Source: a virus
Taxonomy: Duplodnaviria > Heunggongvirae > Uroviricota > Caudoviricetes
Strand: one strand, 5' to 3'
DNA length: 45,162 bases
Virus record (IMG/VR): IMGVR_UViG_2684623059_000002
The stretch's first letter is position 1. Each line of letters starts with the position of its first letter. Below the pieces are notes generated by a model that saw only the letters and a list, made by a program, of their open reading frames with translations, made no database searches and had not been told where the DNA came from. Positions 59-38,796 of this stretch are shown here, one piece after another. The translations under genes and the position numbers were made by a program.

Positions 59-2530
59 TTAAAAATCAGCCTGACTCGGGATCAGTTTTTGCCAGATAGC
101 TGAAACGTATTTTGCCTGGTAACGAGCGTCATCAAGTGCATTATGGCGCTCACCTTCGAATGGGATAGCAGTTCTGGCATCGAAGTCTATGGCTTTCCCC
201 AGCTCAACGATTGTGCGTATATCGCGATCGTTGTAGTAACGCCACGGGCAGGGGATCCCCTGCCGTTCGTATGAACGGCGCAAAATCGTGTTGTCGAAGT
301 TTGCTCCATTTCCCCAGACCTGAACAAAAAATTCACCGGAGTTTTCGTCGATAAATTCCCGCAATTGTAACAGTGCATCATCTAACGGGATTTCATCGGT
401 CATAATGGCAGATTGCGCTTCGCGTGATTGCTTAAGCCACCATTTAATGGTGTCCCGATCAATGACTCCGCCAGCAGTTTCCAGATCGACAGTCTTACTA
501 AATTCCGGTCCCATATCTCCGGTTTGCGGATCGAAAAATATTGCACCTATTGAGATAATCGGGGCATCAGGATTTTTTCCCATGGTTTCAAGGTCGATCA
601 TCAGATGAATCCCCGCTCTGCTGGTGGATGTGAGATTATGGTGACCGTTCACCTTAATTAAGGGATCTGACGCCTCGCCAGTTTCACTATCGCTGGCATG
701 ATGCTGATTGCCGCCAGAGTTCTCCTTGTGCTGATGCGCAGTGCCTTCCATTTCCTCCGGATCATTTTCCTGAACTTCAGGCTGATTCTCTTCATCGAAT
801 ATTTCCTGGTATGTTGCGTCGCCCATCACCGCACCACAATCAGGGCAGCTACCGCCGCCGGTCTGACCGCAGGCGGTGCAGGCTTTTTCCGGCTCCTGTT
901 GCGCTACTGGTTCAACCTGTTTCGTTTCTGGCTCGTTTTGTTGCGCATTTGGGCTGTTTTGTTCCGTTTTCTGGTCGTTCTGTTCCGATTCTTGCTGGTT
1001 CTGGTTTACAGAGTCGCGGGTTTCAATCCCCTTCACCCATTTCGGATCATTCGGGTCGCTAATCCCTGCAACAAATTCTCCGCGAGAGGCAGCAAGCAAC
1101 TTATCGGCGTCAGGCTGGCTGATATTGGCTGCCTGCATAATTTTGTTTACTTCTTCAGCGGTAACTTTTACCGGCTCTGGTTGTGCGGTCGTGTCAGATG
1201 CACCAGTATTTTGTTGTGAACCTGAGTATGTACCGTTTTTGCGGGCAAAATATTCTTCTTTCGTGATTTCAGTAGCCCCTGCAGTCAGCGCCTTATTCAG
1301 ACCAGAAAGTTTGTTTGCGCGACCATATTTTTCGCCATCCTTGTCGGTGAAGAGGAAGTAGAACGGCCCTTCACGCTCTACAGATGGTTCGACTTCCACT
1401 TTGCATTCGGTTTTTTCGTTGTCCGGAATTGCCGTTTCCACTGCATCAGTTTCTGGTACTGGCGACGAGAGAGTATCAGTTGCGCTCTGATTTGTTCCTT
1501 CATCTTCAAACACGCCCTTTGTAGTCAGGTATTCAGTAATGTATTTGTTCAGTGCCACAGGGGCTTTGTGAATGTCGATCGGACGTTCACGGACAAGGCC
1601 AAAAATAGTCTGGCGGTCGTAGCGAAGGGCATCAGGCTGTTTGCGCATTGATGCCGAGATACGCTTCCAGTCTTCGCGGTCGTTGTCGATAACTTCATTT
1701 TTTGCCCAGCGATGGATGCTGCCGTCAATGTTTCCGGCATCAATGTCACCAGGCCACAGAGCGTAGGCCAGTTCATCATCCAGTGTTTTCCATGTCTGCT
1801 TGTATTCGCGACGAATGGTGGCAGTGGCTGGGGGGGGGTTCGCTACTGAGTTTTCAGTGTTCTGCCGGTTGACTCTGGCGCGGGCAAGATCAACAACAGA
1901 CGTGTATTTCCCGGTTTCTTTGCGTTCGGCTTCGCGACGTTTTTTCCAGGTGCGTAATTCTGTCTGGATCTCAGGCCATTTTGCACCCGGCTTACATTTA
2001 TGTTTAACCCACCCGATGGCGAGCAGCTTAAGCTCTGAATACATGACGTTAACTTCAGGCATTTTCATCAATGCCTCAACGATATGCCCGTCGAATGTTG
2101 CCATGTCCTCCTGCAGTAATTCCTGAGCACTAATCACCATATCAACGGTGATGTTTTCACATGTACCGAACTTAACCAGGACCGCGTTCTGTACTTCAAG
2201 GGACAGCTTGTCAAAATTGACGTTCATCGGATCGGATTCTGGTTCGACCGGAATAAAGGAAGCGGATTCCTCATCCCAGCGGTTTTCCTGCATATATTCG
2301 GTATCCCAGGAGTCGATAGCAGGGCGGGGCATGCCGGGTTTATCCTCGCAGACAAGAAATTTATAAGCGCAGTCCTGAGCAGCCGGATATTGCTCCAGGA
2401 ATTGCCAGGTAAATTTGGCACGGGCGCGGCGTTCGTCACCGGCTTCAATGGCAGTGGCTACAGCAATTGCACCTTCTTCCTTTATTGCCTGTTCGTCCGG
2501 AATGGCGGCGCAAATAAAGACTTTACTCAT
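59..2530 (-). CDS. Prophage exonuclease-family protein (823 aa) with C-terminal DnaQ-like DEDDh 3'-5' exonuclease domain, central Cys cluster and Q/E-rich low-complexity linker
   Basis: C-terminal motifs MIDLETMG ... GNGANFD ... HNALDDARY match the DEDD exonuclease fold; CTACGQTGGGSCPDCG resembles a zinc ribbon; long intact ORF. Confidence 0.8.
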   Translation of the reverse strand: MSKVFICAAIPDEQAIKEEGAIAVATAIEAGDERRARAKFTWQFLEQYPAAQDCAYKFLVCEDKPGMPRPAIDSWDTEYMQENRWDEESASFIPVEPESDPMNVNFDKLSLEVQNAVLVKFGTCENITVDMVISAQELLQEDMATFDGHIVEALMKMPEVNVMYSELKLLAIGWVKHKCKPGAKWPEIQTELRTWKKRREAERKETGKYTSVVDLARARVNRQNTENSVANPPPATATIRREYKQTWKTLDDELAYALWPGDIDAGNIDGSIHRWAKNEVIDNDREDWKRISASMRKQPDALRYDRQTIFGLVRERPIDIHKAPVALNKYITEYLTTKGVFEDEGTNQSATDTLSSPVPETDAVETAIPDNEKTECKVEVEPSVEREGPFYFLFTDKDGEKYGRANKLSGLNKALTAGATEITKEEYFARKNGTYSGSQQNTGASDTTAQPEPVKVTAEEVNKIMQAANISQPDADKLLAASRGEFVAGISDPNDPKWVKGIETRDSVNQNQQESEQNDQKTEQNSPNAQQNEPETKQVEPVAQQEPEKACTACGQTGGGSCPDCGAVMGDATYQEIFDEENQPEVQENDPEEMEGTAHQHKENSGGNQHHASDSETGEASDPLIKVNGHHNLTSTSRAGIHLMIDLETMGKNPDAPIISIGAIFFDPQTGDMGPEFSKTVDLETAGGVIDRDTIKWWLKQSREAQSAIMTDEIPLDDALLQLREFIDENSGEFFVQVWGNGANFDNTILRRSYERQGIPCPWRYYNDRDIRTIVELGKAIDFDARTAIPFEGERHNALDDARYQAKYVSAIWQKLIPSQADF

Positions 2531-33402: not shown

Positions 33403-34146
33403 ATGACAGAGACAGAATCAGCGATTCTGGCGCACGCCCGGCGATGTGCGCCAGCGGAGTCGTGTGGCTTCGTGGTAAGCACGCCGGAGGGGGAAAGATA
33501 TTTCCCCTGCGTGAATATCTCCGGTGAGCCGGAGGCGTATTTCCGTATGTCGCCGGAAGACTGGCTGCAGGCAGAGATGCAGGGTGAGATTGTGGCGCTG
33601 GTCCACAGCCACCCCGGTGGTCTGCCCTGGCTGAGTGAGGCCGACCGGCGGCTGCAGGTGCAGAGTGATTTGCCGTGGTGGCTGGTCTGCCGGGGTGAGA
33701 TTCATAAATTCCGCTGTGTGCCGCATCTCACCGGGCGGCGCTTTGAGCACGGGGTGACGGACTGTTACACGCTGTTCCGGGATGCTTATCATCTGGCGGG
33801 GATTGAGATGCCGAATTTTCATCGCGGGGATGACTGGTGGCGTCACGGTCAGAATCTCTATCTGGATAATCTGGAGGCCACAGGGCTGTATCAGGTGCCG
33901 TTGTCATCAGCACAACCGGGCGATGTGCTGCTGTGCTGTTTTGGTTCATCGGTGCCGAATCATGCCGCCATTTACTGTGGTGACGGCGAGCTGCTGCACC
34001 ATATTCCTGAACAACTGAGCAAACGAGAGAGGTATACCGAAAAATGGCAGCGACGCACACACTCCCTCTGGCGTCACCGGGCATGGCGCGCATCTGCCTT
34101 TACGGGGATTTACAACGATTTGGCCGCCGCATCGACCTTCGTGTGA
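33403..34146 (+). CDS. K: Tail assembly protein K (MPN/JAB plus NlpC/P60 domains)
   Basis: HSHP JAB-like motif and NlpC/P60-like C-terminal half. Confidence 0.9.
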   Translation: MTETESAILAHARRCAPAESCGFVVSTPEGERYFPCVNISGEPEAYFRMSPEDWLQAEMQGEIVALVHSHPGGLPWLSEADRRLQVQSDLPWWLVCRGEIHKFRCVPHLTGRRFEHGVTDCYTLFRDAYHLAGIEMPNFHRGDDWWRHGQNLYLDNLEATGLYQVPLSSAQPGDVLLCCFGSSVPNHAAIYCGDGELLHHIPEQLSKRERYTEKWQRRTHSLWRHRAWRASAFTGIYNDLAAASTFV

Positions 34147-34685
34147 AAACGGGGGCTGAAGCCATCCGGGCGCTGGCCACACAGCTCCCGGCGTTTCGTC
34201 AGAAACTGAGCGACGGCTGGTATCAGGTACGCATTGCCGGGCGTGATACAGGTGAAACTGAATTATCAGCCCGTCTTAATGAACCGCTGGCAAATGGTGC
34301 CGTGATCCATATTGTGCCGCGCCTGGCGGGAGCCAAAAGTGGCGGCGTGTTTCAGGCCGTGCTGGGCGCAGCTGTTATGGCGGTTGCTATATGGATGCCT
34401 GGGGTGGGAATTATGACAAGTAATCTGCTGTTTTCTCTCGGTGCCAGTATGACGCTTGGCGGTGTGGCCCAGATGCTGGCACCCAGACCCAAAACTCCCC
34501 GAACACAGACAACGAATAACGGTAAGCAGAACACGTATTTCTCCTCTCTGGATAACCTGGTTGCCCAGGGCAATGTTCTGCCCGTTCTGTACGGTGAACT
34601 GCGAGTGGGGTCACGTGTTGTCTCTCAGGAGATCAGCACGGCAGATGAAGGGGATGGTGGTCAGGTTGTGGTTATTGGTCGCTGA
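34044..34685 (+). CDS. I: Tail assembly protein I
   Basis: Overlaps K 3' end as in lambda; hydrophobic central segment. Confidence 0.85.
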   Translation: MAATHTLPLASPGMARICLYGDLQRFGRRIDLRVKTGAEAIRALATQLPAFRQKLSDGWYQVRIAGRDTGETELSARLNEPLANGAVIHIVPRLAGAKSGGVFQAVLGAAVMAVAIWMPGVGIMTSNLLFSLGASMTLGGVAQMLAPRPKTPRTQTTNNGKQNTYFSSLDNLVAQGNVLPVLYGELRVGSRVVSQEISTADEGDGGQVVVIGR

Positions 34686-34727
34686 TAATCACCGCCAGCT
34701 ATGACGGTGATTGCTTTAGGCTGTTTG

Positions 34728-35249
34728 TTATTTAATTATTCCGCATGCCAGTCTTGCGCCTCCCCCCCCCAGAGGAGCAGGTGAATCGGAATGATTATCC
34801 CCTCCGGCATGAATCATGATCGCCCGTTCTTTTATCTGGCTTATTTTTTTTATTTTTGGACTCAGAACCGGGTTTTCTGCATTTCCTTCTGAGTTGACAT
34901 AGAGTGCTGGTAGATCACCCAGATGGCCCTCCGGATTGTACGGCCCAAGATGTTTATTTGTTTGTTCAGGATCATAATGCCCACCGGCAGCAAGAGCTGG
35001 CACTTTTTTTCCATTAATCAGACCGGGATCACAACTGGCATTTTCATGGATATGAAAGCCATGTAACCCTGGTGGCAGTTCTTTCAGATGAGGAGTGAAC
35101 AGCAATCCGTAGCTGGTTTCTGAAATAGTTATTTCCCCTATATTTTTCCCTACTCCTTCTGAGGAAACGAGATTTACAGGGATCGTCATTGTATCAGCCA
35201 TTACGGCTCCACTAAGTAGCGCAGTTACAGCAAGTATTTTTTTTATCAT
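34728..35249 (-). CDS. sodC: Periplasmic Cu,Zn superoxide dismutase (SodC) moron
   Basis: Signal peptide plus Cu/Zn-SOD motifs (GFHIHE..., GGGGARLACGII); located between I and J on the opposite strand. Confidence 0.9.
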   Translation of the reverse strand: MIKKILAVTALLSGAVMADTMTIPVNLVSSEGVGKNIGEITISETSYGLLFTPHLKELPPGLHGFHIHENASCDPGLINGKKVPALAAGGHYDPEQTNKHLGPYNPEGHLGDLPALYVNSEGNAENPVLSPKIKKISQIKERAIMIHAGGDNHSDSPAPLGGGGARLACGIIK

Positions 35250-35382
35250 AAATACCCCGTCATTTCGTGTTGTTAATCAAGGTGATTTAAGTTTTAACAA
35301 ATGAAATACAACAGATGCATTTTTGTTGCAAGCGGTCGTTATATGGTTCGCATAAAATTGATTACTGTTTCGGGAATTATCT

Positions 35383-38300
35383 ATGGGTAAAGGTGGCAGT
35401 AAGGGGCATACCCCGCGCGAAGTGAAGGACAACCTGAAATCATCCCAGCTGCTGAGCGTGATAGACGCCATCAGTGAAGGACCGATTGAAGGTCCGGTGG
35501 ATGGATTAAAAAGTGTGCTGCTGAACAGTACGCCAGTGCTGGACAGTGAGGGGAATACCAATATCTCCGGTGTCACGGTGGTGTTCCGGGCAGGTGAGCA
35601 GGAGCAGACACCGCCGGAGGGATTTGAATCCTCCGGCTCCGAGACGGTGCTGGGTACGGAGGTGAAGTACGACACGCCGATTACCCGGACCATCACATCG
35701 GCAAACATCGACCGTCTGCGCTTTACCTTCGGTGTGCAGGCACTGGTGGAAACCACTTCAAAGGGGGACCGGAATCCGTCGGAAGTTCGCCTGCTGGTTC
35801 AGATACAACGTAATGGTGGCTGGGTGACGGAAAAAGACATCACCATTAAGGGCAAAACCACCTCGCAGTATCTGGCCTCGGTGGTGGTGGGTAACCTGCC
35901 GCCGCGCCCGTTTAATATCCGGATGCGCAGGATGACGCCGGACAGCACCACAGACCAGCTGCAGAACAAAACGCTCTGGTCGTCATACACCGAAATCATC
36001 GATGTGCAACAGTGCTACCCGAACACGGCACTGGTCGGCGTGCAGGTGGACTCGGAACAGTTCGGCAGTCAGCAGGTGAGCCGTAATTATCATCTTCGCG
36101 GGCGCATTCTGCAGGTGCCGTCGAACTATAACCCGCAGACGCGGCAATACAGCGGTATCTGGGACGGAACGTTTAAGCCAGCATACAGCAACAATATGGC
36201 CTGGTGTCTGTGGGATATGCTGACCCATCCGCGCTACGGCATGGGGAAGCGTCTCGGTGCGGCGGATGTGGACAAATGGGCGCTGTATGTCATCGGCCAG
36301 AATTGCGACCAGTCGGTGCCGGACGGCTTTGGCGGCACGGAGCCGCGCATCACCTGTAACGCTTACCTGACCACACAGCGCAAGGCGTGGGATGTGCTCA
36401 GTGATTTCTGCTCGGCGATGCGCTGTATGCCGGTATGGAACGGGCAGACGCTGACGTTCGTGCAGGACCGACAGTCGGATAAGGTGTGGACCTATAACCG
36501 CAGTAATGTGGTGATGCCGGATGATGGCGCGCCGTTCCGCTACAGCTTCAGCGCCCTGAAGGACCGCCATAACGCCGTTGAGGTGAACTGGATTGACCCG
36601 GACAACGGCTGGGAGACGGCGACAGAGCTGGTTGAAGACACGCAGGCCATTGCCCGTTACGGTCGTAACGTCACGAAGATGGATGCCTTTGGCTGTACCA
36701 GCCGGGGGCAGGCGCACCGCGCCGGGCTGTGGCTGATTAAAACGGAACTGCTGGAAACGCAGACCGTGGACTTCAGCGTGGGTGCAGAAGGGCTTCGCCA
36801 TGTGCCGGGAGACGTCATTGAAATCTGCGATGATGACTATGCGGGTATCAGCATCGGTGGTCGCGTGCTGGCGGTGAACAGCCAGACCCGGACGCTGACG
36901 CTCGACCGTGAAATCACGCTGCCAGCCTCCGGCACCACACTGATAAGCCTGGTCGACGGGACGGGGAGTCCGGTCAGCGTGGAGGTCCAGTCCGTCACCG
37001 ACGGCGTGCAGGTGAAAGTGAACCGTATCCCTGACGGCGTTGCCGGATACAGCGTGTGGGGGCTGAAGCTGCCGACGCTGCGCCAGCGCCTGTTCCGCTG
37101 TGTGAGTATCCGTGAGAACGATGACGGCACGTATGCCATCACTGCCGTGCAGCATGTACCGGAAAAAGAAGCCATCGTGGATAACGGGGCGCACTTTGAC
37201 GGCGACCAGAGCGGCACGGTGAACGGTGTCACGCCGCCAGCGGTGCAGCACCTGACCGCCGAAGTTTCGGCAGACAGCGGGGAATATCAGGTACTGGCGC
37301 GCTGGGACACGCCGAAGGTGGTGAAGGGGGTGAGCTTTATGCTTCGCCTGACTGTGGCAGCAGACGACGGCAGTGAGCGGCTGGTCAGCACGGCCAGGAC
37401 GACGGAAACCACATACCGCTTCACGCAACTGGCGCCAGGGAACTACAGGCTGACAGTCCGGGCGGTAAATGCGTGGGGACAGCAGGGCGACCCGGCGTCG
37501 GTATCGTTCAGGATTGCCGCACCGGCAGCGCCGTCACAGATTGAGCTGACGCCGGGCTATTTTCAGATAACCGCCACGCCGCATCTTGCGGTTTATGACC
37601 CGACGGTACAGTTTGAGTTCTGGTTTTCGGAAAAGCGGATTACCGATATCAGGCAGGTTGAAACCACAGCCCGCTATCTTGGCACGGGGATGTACTGGAT
37701 AGCCGCCAGTATCAATATCAAACCGGGCCATGATTATTACTTTTATATCCGCAGCGTGAACACCGTTGGTAAATCGGCATTCGTGGAGGCTGTCGGTCAG
37801 GCGAGCGATGATGCGGAAGGTTACCTGGATTTTTTCAAAGGCAAGATAACCGAATCTCATCTCGGCAAGGAGCTGCTGGAAAAAGTCGAGCTGACGGAGG
37901 ATAACGCCAGCAAACTGGAGGAGTTTTCGAAAGAGTGGAAGGATGTCAACGATAAATGGAATGCCATGTGGGCTGTCAAAATTGAGCAGACCAAAGACGG
38001 CAAACATTATGTCGCGGGTATTGGCCTCAGTATGGAGGACACGCCGGAAGGCAAGCTGAGCCAGTTTCTGGTTGCCGCTAACCGTATTGCGTTTATTGAT
38101 CCGTCTAATGGCAACACACGACCAATGTTTGTTGGTCAGGGCGATCAGATATTCATGAACGACGTGTTCCTGAAGCGCCTGACGGCCCCGACCATCACCA
38201 GCGGCGGCAATCCACCGGCATTTTCCCTGACACCGGACGGGCGGCTGACGGCGAAAAATGCTGATATCAGCGGTAACGTGAATGCGAACTCCGGGACGCT

Positions 38301-38796
38301 CAACAATGTCACGATTAACCAGAACTGTACGATTAAGGGCATGCTGGAGGCGACCCAGGTCAGAGGGGATTTCGTTAAAGCTGTATCAAAAGCCTTCCCG
38401 AAAAAAGTCGGTACGTGGGGTAACACGGAAACACCAGACGGTACGGTTACAGTCACCATCAGCGATGATCATAACTTTGACCGTCAAATCATTATTCCGC
38501 CCATTATTTTTAACGGTATAGCGTATACCGATCCGGGGAGCGGAAATAACCCCGGAGGCACGCGATACACGGGTTATGGTTTTGAAGTTCGCAAAAACGG
38601 CGTATTAATCGCATCCAGAGAAACTAAAGGGGCCATTCCCGGTAGTTACAGTGCGGTTATTGATATGCCGGGTGGCAGGGGAAGCGTCACTCTGGAGTTT
38701 AAGATTTTCCAGAAAGGGAATCAGGGGGCAGGCAATATCACCGACTGTACGGTGATTGTGACCAAAAAAGCGGCTTCCGGCATCAGTATCCGTTGA
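35383..38796 (+). CDS. J: Tail tip / host specificity protein J
   Basis: 1137-aa ORF collinear with lambda gpJ. Confidence 0.95.

Follow-up and report, generated by a model that had tools for sequence, protein, structure and literature searches.

Homopolymer length variation in a prophage-borne sodC gene inserted between tail genes I and J

Prophage sodC genes and repeat-length alleles described so far

In Salmonella and in Escherichia coli O157, sodC genes on prophages are well known as fitness and virulence cargo. The window analysed here, a stretch of viral DNA of 45,162 nucleotides, carries such a gene between the tail genes I and J, on the strand opposite to them. The closest described arrangements are those of sodCIII (STM0924) in the Salmonella phage Fels-1 and of the sodC gene of the Stx2a-converting phage Stx2_EH1846, which are inserted at the same junction on the opposite strand of lambdoid phages or prophages and encode proteins of 173-176 aa. 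In these genes the Gly4 motif is written GGG GGC GGT GGT or GGC GGT GGT GGT, whereas the window reads G9-A-GG. Gifsy-2 sodCI, a Salmonella virulence determinant, is likewise carried by a prophage inside the block of tail genes and on the strand opposite to them, and its product aligns with the window protein in the segments that hold the conserved His, Asp, Arg and Cys residues. Unlike the window gene, however, it lies between a lom homologue/M and L, and its Gly codons are mixed. At the protein level, the nearest phage copies were those of Fels-1 (65% identity), Gifsy-2 (62%) and the Stx2a phages (57%). In contrast to the window protein, the signal peptide of the Stx2a-phage protein contains a Cys.

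In O157:H7, sodC-F1 and sodC-F2 encode lambdoid-prophage periplasmic SODs that are redundant with each other and with the chromosomal sodC (D'Orazio et al. 2008, PMC2569942). The prophage SodC enzymes are differently regulated and more stable, and a lipid-modification signal was reported for O157 SodC-F (PMC2569942). The setting is similar in that attaching/effacing Escherichia are concerned in both cases, and several E. albertii genomes likewise carry two sodC copies. However, sodC-F1 and sodC-F2 belong to another allele family, and no tract polymorphism was reported for them in PMC2569942.

A precedent for repeat-length alleles is gonococcal pgtA, which occurs as alleles with a pure, length-changing poly-G run and as constitutively expressed alleles that lack the run or have it interrupted (Banerjee et al. 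2002, PMC2193922). Experiments have demonstrated phase variation for pgtA, whereas for the window sodC switching is a possibility raised by sequence comparison. The host species of pgtA is also rich in repeat-based switches, while the gene described here encodes a periplasmic enzyme carried as cargo by an Escherichia prophage. Our literature search found nothing linking sodC to E. albertii prophages, homopolymers or repeat-mediated or phase variation, and the tract polymorphism itself appears to be undescribed. A sodC moron is a known kind of cargo and homopolymer slippage is a textbook mechanism. The allele series is thus a new instance of known things rather than a new kind of system.

The sodC moron and its prophage

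The minus-strand ORF 34728..35249 of the window is an intact reading frame for a Cu,Zn superoxide dismutase of 173 aa. The protein matched Pfam Sod_Cu (PF00080) with an E value of 1.6e-32 and 113.2 bits against a cutoff of 28.9, and the match spanned positions 3-133 of the 133 in the profile. The nearest solved structures were those of Salmonella SodCI (1EQW and 6D52), which aligned over residues 19-172 with E values around 1e-67. The alignment showed matches in the HGFH-H, SC, AGGH, KH, GHLGD, MIH and GGGGAR-ACG segments. We take the roles of the metal-ligand His and Asp residues, the active-site Arg and the disulfide Cys pair to be those established for the Cu,Zn-SOD family. The last codons, from Ala165 to Lys173 and the stop (34728..34758, minus strand), include Arg166 and Cys169 and align to 'GGGGARFACGVI' of SodCI. 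At the other end, the putative signal-peptide coding part (35196..35249, minus strand), read by eye as MIKKILAVTALLSGAVMA followed by D, has an n-h-c layout that looks like a Sec signal and is without a lipobox Cys. The solved SodCI chains start aligning at query residue 19-20. The window SodC would be exported via this signal peptide and would remove periplasmic superoxide in the manner of SodCI, SodCIII and O157 SodC-F.

The left border of the moron is the tail assembly gene I (34044..34685, plus strand; Pfam Lambda_tail_I, E 1.3e-24), and the right border is the tip attachment/host specificity gene J (35383..38796, plus strand), which is full-length and contains six gpJ-specific Pfam domains. 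The preliminary description of this DNA had placed a sodC moron between I and J on the opposite strand, and this was borne out; the layout is the same as for Fels-1 sodCIII and the Stx2a-phage sodC. I and J are adjacent in lambda, and the 3' end of I was matched without sodC in the related phages cdtI, mEp332 and phi458 and in 922 E. coli genomes. The GC content over sodC and its upstream spacer was 0.36-0.47, compared with 0.55-0.65 in the flanks. The gene therefore combines two marks of a moron, namely insertion between phage-conserved neighbours and a deviating base composition. In related loci, gene I has been called at 180, 190, 191, 200, 210, 213 and 223 aa. The middle of the gene differs greatly from haplotype to haplotype and contains indels, while the last ~90 nt are conserved.

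Both ends of the moron were examined for signals of transcription. The AT-rich spacer of 133 bp between the divergent starts of sodC and J (35250..35382, GC ~0.36) is presumed to be the sodC promoter region; the assignment is presumptive because a sigma-70 consensus scan upstream of sodC gave no match. Between the convergent stops of I and sodC, RNA folding predicted a hairpin with an 11-bp stem (34687..34712; -15.9 kcal/mol, z -3.6), and none of 200 shuffles folded equally well. No U-run follows this hairpin on the sodC strand, so it is regarded as a putative terminator. The intact sodC would be an independently transcribed moron cargo at the junction of I and J in an effector-carrying lambdoid prophage.

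Further along the window, the tail fibre gene (38850-40169) contains a collagen triple-helix repeat block between phage_tail_N and Phage_fiber_C domains. Type III effector cargo occupies positions 40650-44908 downstream of the tail fibre and consists of NleG (40650..41240, with a T8 run at 40993-41000), a SopA/NleL-like pentapeptide-repeat E3 ligase (41290..43662) and the Peptidase_M85 protein NleC (43916..44908). The presence of these three effectors implied an effector-carrying lambdoid prophage of attaching/effacing Escherichia, and the host is most likely E. albertii.

The exact window protein (P0121) was encoded by 324 contigs in a large protein collection, named E. albertii or Escherichia, and the next protein cluster had only 73% identity. 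Altogether, about 370 contigs in this collection encode an intact protein. At the megablast level, the window sodC was absent from 5,426 complete E. coli genomes and 50,697 phage records, in which the locus matched only through the last 87 nt of gene I. These collections were thus useless for comparing the tract. A pattern scan gave no match in one-genome-per-species contigs, two in metagenomes and six in IMG/VR. The SNP haplotype of the window was identical to those of CP099877.1 (L025) and CP099898.1 (L032). Two E. albertii genomes, CP117556.1 (L016 and L058) and CP030781.2 (L061 and L068), each carry two sodC copies in different prophages, and in CP117556.1 one copy has an A7 run (off) while the other is intact. 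In a few loci, namely L026 (CP117580.1, 1592152-1595673), L041 and L047, the same sodC allele was found without I and J. The L026 copy adjoins a Phage_fiber_C fragment and chromosomal MagC/DUF2138 genes, and it appears to have been retained in a degraded prophage remnant.

Length alleles at the two ends of sodC

The preliminary description had reported a 9-nt C/G homopolymer encoding the GGGG motif, and the sequence confirmed it. A C9 run occupies exactly 34762-34770 on the plus strand, which is G9 on the coding strand of sodC. The coding sense over the run is CTG GGG GGG GGA GGC, corresponding to Leu160 and Gly161-164. The run thus comprises the last base of the Leu codon, two complete Gly codons and two bases of the third; it is followed by A at 34761 and then GG. 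Together these bases form a 12-nt slippage site (34759..34770, minus strand) covering the end of Leu160 and the Gly4 motif, which was polymorphic among the loci compared.

Long homopolymers are concentrated in this gene. Three of the five runs of at least 8 nt in the window lie inside the 522-nt sodC, which makes up 1.2% of its length. These are G9, an A8 run at codons 2-4 (35237-35244) and a mid-gene A8 run (34844-34851). For G/C runs of at least 9 nt, two were found in the window against 0.375 expected from 200 first-order Markov simulations. The other G/C 9-mer is located at 1830-1838 in the ORF 59..2530 (minus strand), where it reads C9 on the coding strand and specifies N-PPP-A around residue 231. 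The 823-aa product of this ORF carries an Rv2179c-like 3'-5' exonuclease domain at its C-terminus and would be truncated to 326 or 251 aa by a one-base change in the run. In sodC, 16 of the 22 glycines (73%) are encoded by GGA or GGG, compared with 34 of 105 (32%) in J. With such foreign, GGR-rich Gly codons, the conserved Gly4 motif is spelled almost wholly in G. By comparison, the sodC genes of Fels-1, Gifsy-2 and the Stx2a phages use mixed GGT/GGC codons in this motif and have no run of 7 nt or more. The sodC homopolymers thus seem to have arisen as a side effect of foreign codon usage.

We typed the Gly4 site in 82 sodC copies, for which loci were picked via protein variants and run lengths were read from assemblies; because the sampling was driven by protein variant, the frequencies that follow are rough. 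Pure G runs were present in 29 copies (G11 in 15, G12 in two, G13 in ten, and G14 and G15 in one each). Only 3 of these 29 copies were in frame. The other 53 copies had interrupted alleles: G6-T-G5 in 36, G5-T-G5 in one, G6-T-GG-T-GG in 11, G9-A-GG in four including the window, and G8-A-GG in one. Two of these 53, G8AGG (L073) and G5TG5 (L074), were slipped forms. The broken J of L074 was caused by a 10-bp deletion. The five loci on the window haplotype comprised four with G9AGG unchanged and L073 with G8AGG. A comparison of tract length among isolates had been proposed in the preliminary description, with an invariant tract as the outcome that would speak against slippage; the tract was found to vary.

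The protein collection gave a consistent picture. Length variants in the 90%-identity cluster were predicted to be products of pure G11, G13 and G14 runs, and the fetched DNA agreed. An exact-sequence lookup of predicted slippage products detected those of G8AGG, G5TG5, G10, G11, G14 and G15 in the collection, while products of G10AGG, G7TG5, G16 and an in-frame G9 were absent from it. G10 is thus known as a product on record, and G11 to G15 were read in typed DNA. G13 was seen in 12 contigs of different assemblies, and one G13 contig was identical in 13 sequencing runs. For G11, there were three independent draft assemblies, all with the same flanks, and another 17 contigs. Of about 470 contigs, some 33 had a frameshift at the G site and a further few per cent had A7, figures that are rough owing to sampling and gene-calling biases.

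The length changes occurred on otherwise identical backgrounds. Pure runs from G11 to G15 had the same SNP haplotype across ~1 kb. The three G11 loci were mutually identical, as were the five G13/A8 loci, over 3.5 kb, and the two groups differed from each other by 2 substitutions in 3.5 kb. Between L006 (G13) and L037 (G15), there were 0 substitutions in 3,474 bp. Within each of the near-clonal G11 and G13 groups, which had 0 SNPs, the run length was fixed. The slippage-prone nature of the tract, as claimed in the preliminary description, was thus supported by the spread from G11 to G15 on this ~1-kb haplotype and by the G8-A-GG copy on the window haplotype. Pure runs were also present on at least three other sodC haplotypes (L028, L034/35, L076 and L077).

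The interruptions correspond to two SNP columns, 34764 (T/G) and 34761 (A/G). The pure-run haplotype differed from the common G6TG5 haplotype (L024, L027, L030 and L031) only by T to G at 34764, and the window haplotype has G at 34764 and A at 34761. The pure run is thus one base from G6TG5, and the two bases of the window place G12 as the mutational intermediate. The window G9AGG is most simply explained as a re-interrupted derivative of G12, a direction of change that we infer from these two columns. A pure G12, one synonymous change from both G6-T-G5 and G9-A-GG, would slip by slipped-strand changes to give G10 to G15.

Changes of one or two bases in the G run replaced the last 8-9 residues, ARLACGIIK, by AQDWHAE or RKTGMRNN, and such frameshift products were observed as P0125, P0126, P0001 and P0137-P0139. 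Arg166 and Cys169, which align with the active-site Arg and a disulfide Cys of SodCI, are both lost by the frameshift. Since a catalytic-site and a disulfide residue are dropped, the enzyme activity would be lost, judging from the conserved residues and family knowledge. Several frameshifted or N-truncated copies of 154-171 aa (P0122, P0125-P0129 and P0137-P0140) have been entered in public records as normal SodC or SodC2 proteins.

The A8 run at codons 2-4 (ATG ATA AAA AAA ATA; 35237..35244, minus strand) is a second slippage site. It had escaped the preliminary description and varied at least as often as the G run. A7 was present in 14 of the 82 typed copies and gave the product MIKKYLL-stop. 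It was found on at least six backgrounds, namely G11, G13, G15, G9AGG (L014, on the window haplotype), G6TG5 (several haplotypes) and G6TGGTGG. We considered rescue of the A7 alleles by an alternative start and rejected it. No in-frame ATG, GTG or TTG occurs upstream of Met17, where only ATA and ATT are available, so A7 could yield only a product without a signal peptide. Recurrent change from A8 to A7 would remove the start of the signal peptide. We also rejected a frameshift in the A run as the explanation for every 157-aa SodC entry, as many keep A8 and the gene caller chose Met17.

For the mid-gene A8 run (34844..34851, minus strand; codons for KIKKIS), no variant was found, and the exact-sequence lookup detected neither A7 nor A9 products in the protein collection. 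The invariance of this A8 and of an A7 run was dropped as evidence, and the negative product lookups for the mid-gene A8 remain. The invariance is uninformative because the loci were fetched through proteins reading across those runs.

In the window copy, both variable runs are in the ON configuration, and the G run is partly stabilised and slips rarely.

Hot spot, switch or artefact

We consider it fairly probable, at roughly 0.6, that the window carries an intact moron with two slippage hot spots that recurrently and heritably inactivate an accessory gene. Both runs would be mutational hot spots that repeatedly inactivate a gene which is accessory and often duplicated. A hot spot fits the data better than a tuned switch because lengths are fixed within the near-clonal groups, because most lengths are out of frame, as a neutral random walk would give, and because interrupted, stable alleles make up most copies. 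It is further favoured by the several genomes that carry two copies in different prophages, since selection on each copy would be relaxed.

A different reading is that the G run, and perhaps the A run, is kept by selection as a reversible high-frequency switch of SOD, which would make sodC a phase-variable contingency locus. The uninterrupted run would be the switching form and the interrupted run a locked-ON form, by analogy with the poly-G and no-poly-G alleles of the one gene pgtA (PMC2193922). The G12-type alleles might then represent a genuine repeat-based phase-variable gene, with G9-A-GG-like alleles as locked-ON derivatives, and the A8 run perhaps tunes expression through DNA or transcriptional slippage. 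Features of a phase-variable gene were indeed found: G9 and A8 lie within the ORF, their frameshift products were both predicted and observed, and isolates that match elsewhere in the locus differ in run length. A single haplotype showed five to six lengths, among them G15, at which the frame is restored. The gene also uses rare GGG codons at positions where they are avoided in other sodC genes, and two independent switch-like runs are placed one at each end of the gene. However, the uniform length of the three G11 and five G13 loci, together with the G13 contig found in 13 runs, points against very high switching rates. The low in-frame share of the pure-run copies is as expected without selection for function, and interrupted runs are present not only in most typed copies but also in the bulk of the ~370 intact-protein contigs. 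SodC is not a surface antigen, and Escherichia has mismatch repair and few repeat-based switches. Selection for switching is therefore doubtful, and so is the division into switching and locked-ON alleles. The potential on/off switch raised in the preliminary description found little support: near-clonal groups were fixed in length, about two thirds of the pure-run lineages were out of frame, most copies have interrupted, stable tracts, and the run of the window copy itself is interrupted and in frame.

The preliminary description had also suggested a sequencing-error hotspot. In its strongest form, this would mean that the tract is constant, as G12 or in the interrupted forms, and that the other lengths are homopolymer miscalls. 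Long G runs are hard for all sequencing platforms. The G14 record (L036, RN587/1) is an old draft, presumably sequenced by 454, and several G11 records in complete genomes (L034/35 and L076) resemble the loss of T from G6TG5; these complete genomes with G11 on G6TG5-type haplotypes may be long-read based. Errors may thus explain a few records from 454 or long-read assemblies, but not the whole pattern. G11, G13 and A7 recur in independent short-read assemblies, as in the G13 and G11 contigs described above; short reads readily tell A7 from A8, and that difference was seen on many backgrounds. No further 1-nt indels were present within 3.5 kb in the suspect complete-genome loci. The suspicion that the CP04xxxx E. 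albertii genomes are riddled with homopolymer indels, which would discredit their G11 and G5TG5 calls, was likewise unsupported, with the tract as the sole 1-nt indel over that distance. A pure sequencing artefact is therefore unlikely, although some run-length calls may be assembly errors and individual records, such as RN587/1, may be wrong.

That the window G9 is an inert by-product of a GGR-rich Gly4 motif, stable in its interrupted form and of no biological consequence, agrees with the unchanged G9AGG in four of the five loci on its haplotype, the absence of G10AGG products from the collection and the GGR-rich codons throughout sodC, but is very unlikely given G8AGG (L073) and A7 (L014) on that same haplotype and the clear instability of the neighbouring G12 state, one substitution away.

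The variation at both runs bears on how this gene is counted and named. In the allele family of E. albertii and atypical EPEC, about one in ten copies in public assemblies is apparently knocked out at either homopolymer. In annotation, disrupted copies are labelled as SodC or SodC2 of 157, 170 or 171 aa rather than as frameshifted genes. Virulence-gene typing that scores presence or absence will overcount functional sodC. The stability of the Gly4 site hinges on a single synonymous base, and in an enteric bacterium proficient in mismatch repair the locus offers a natural test case for the stabilisation of repeats by synonymous interruptions. If switching proved to be reversible and frequent, the gene would be a phage-borne contingency locus for Escherichia, which is rare in Enterobacteriaceae.
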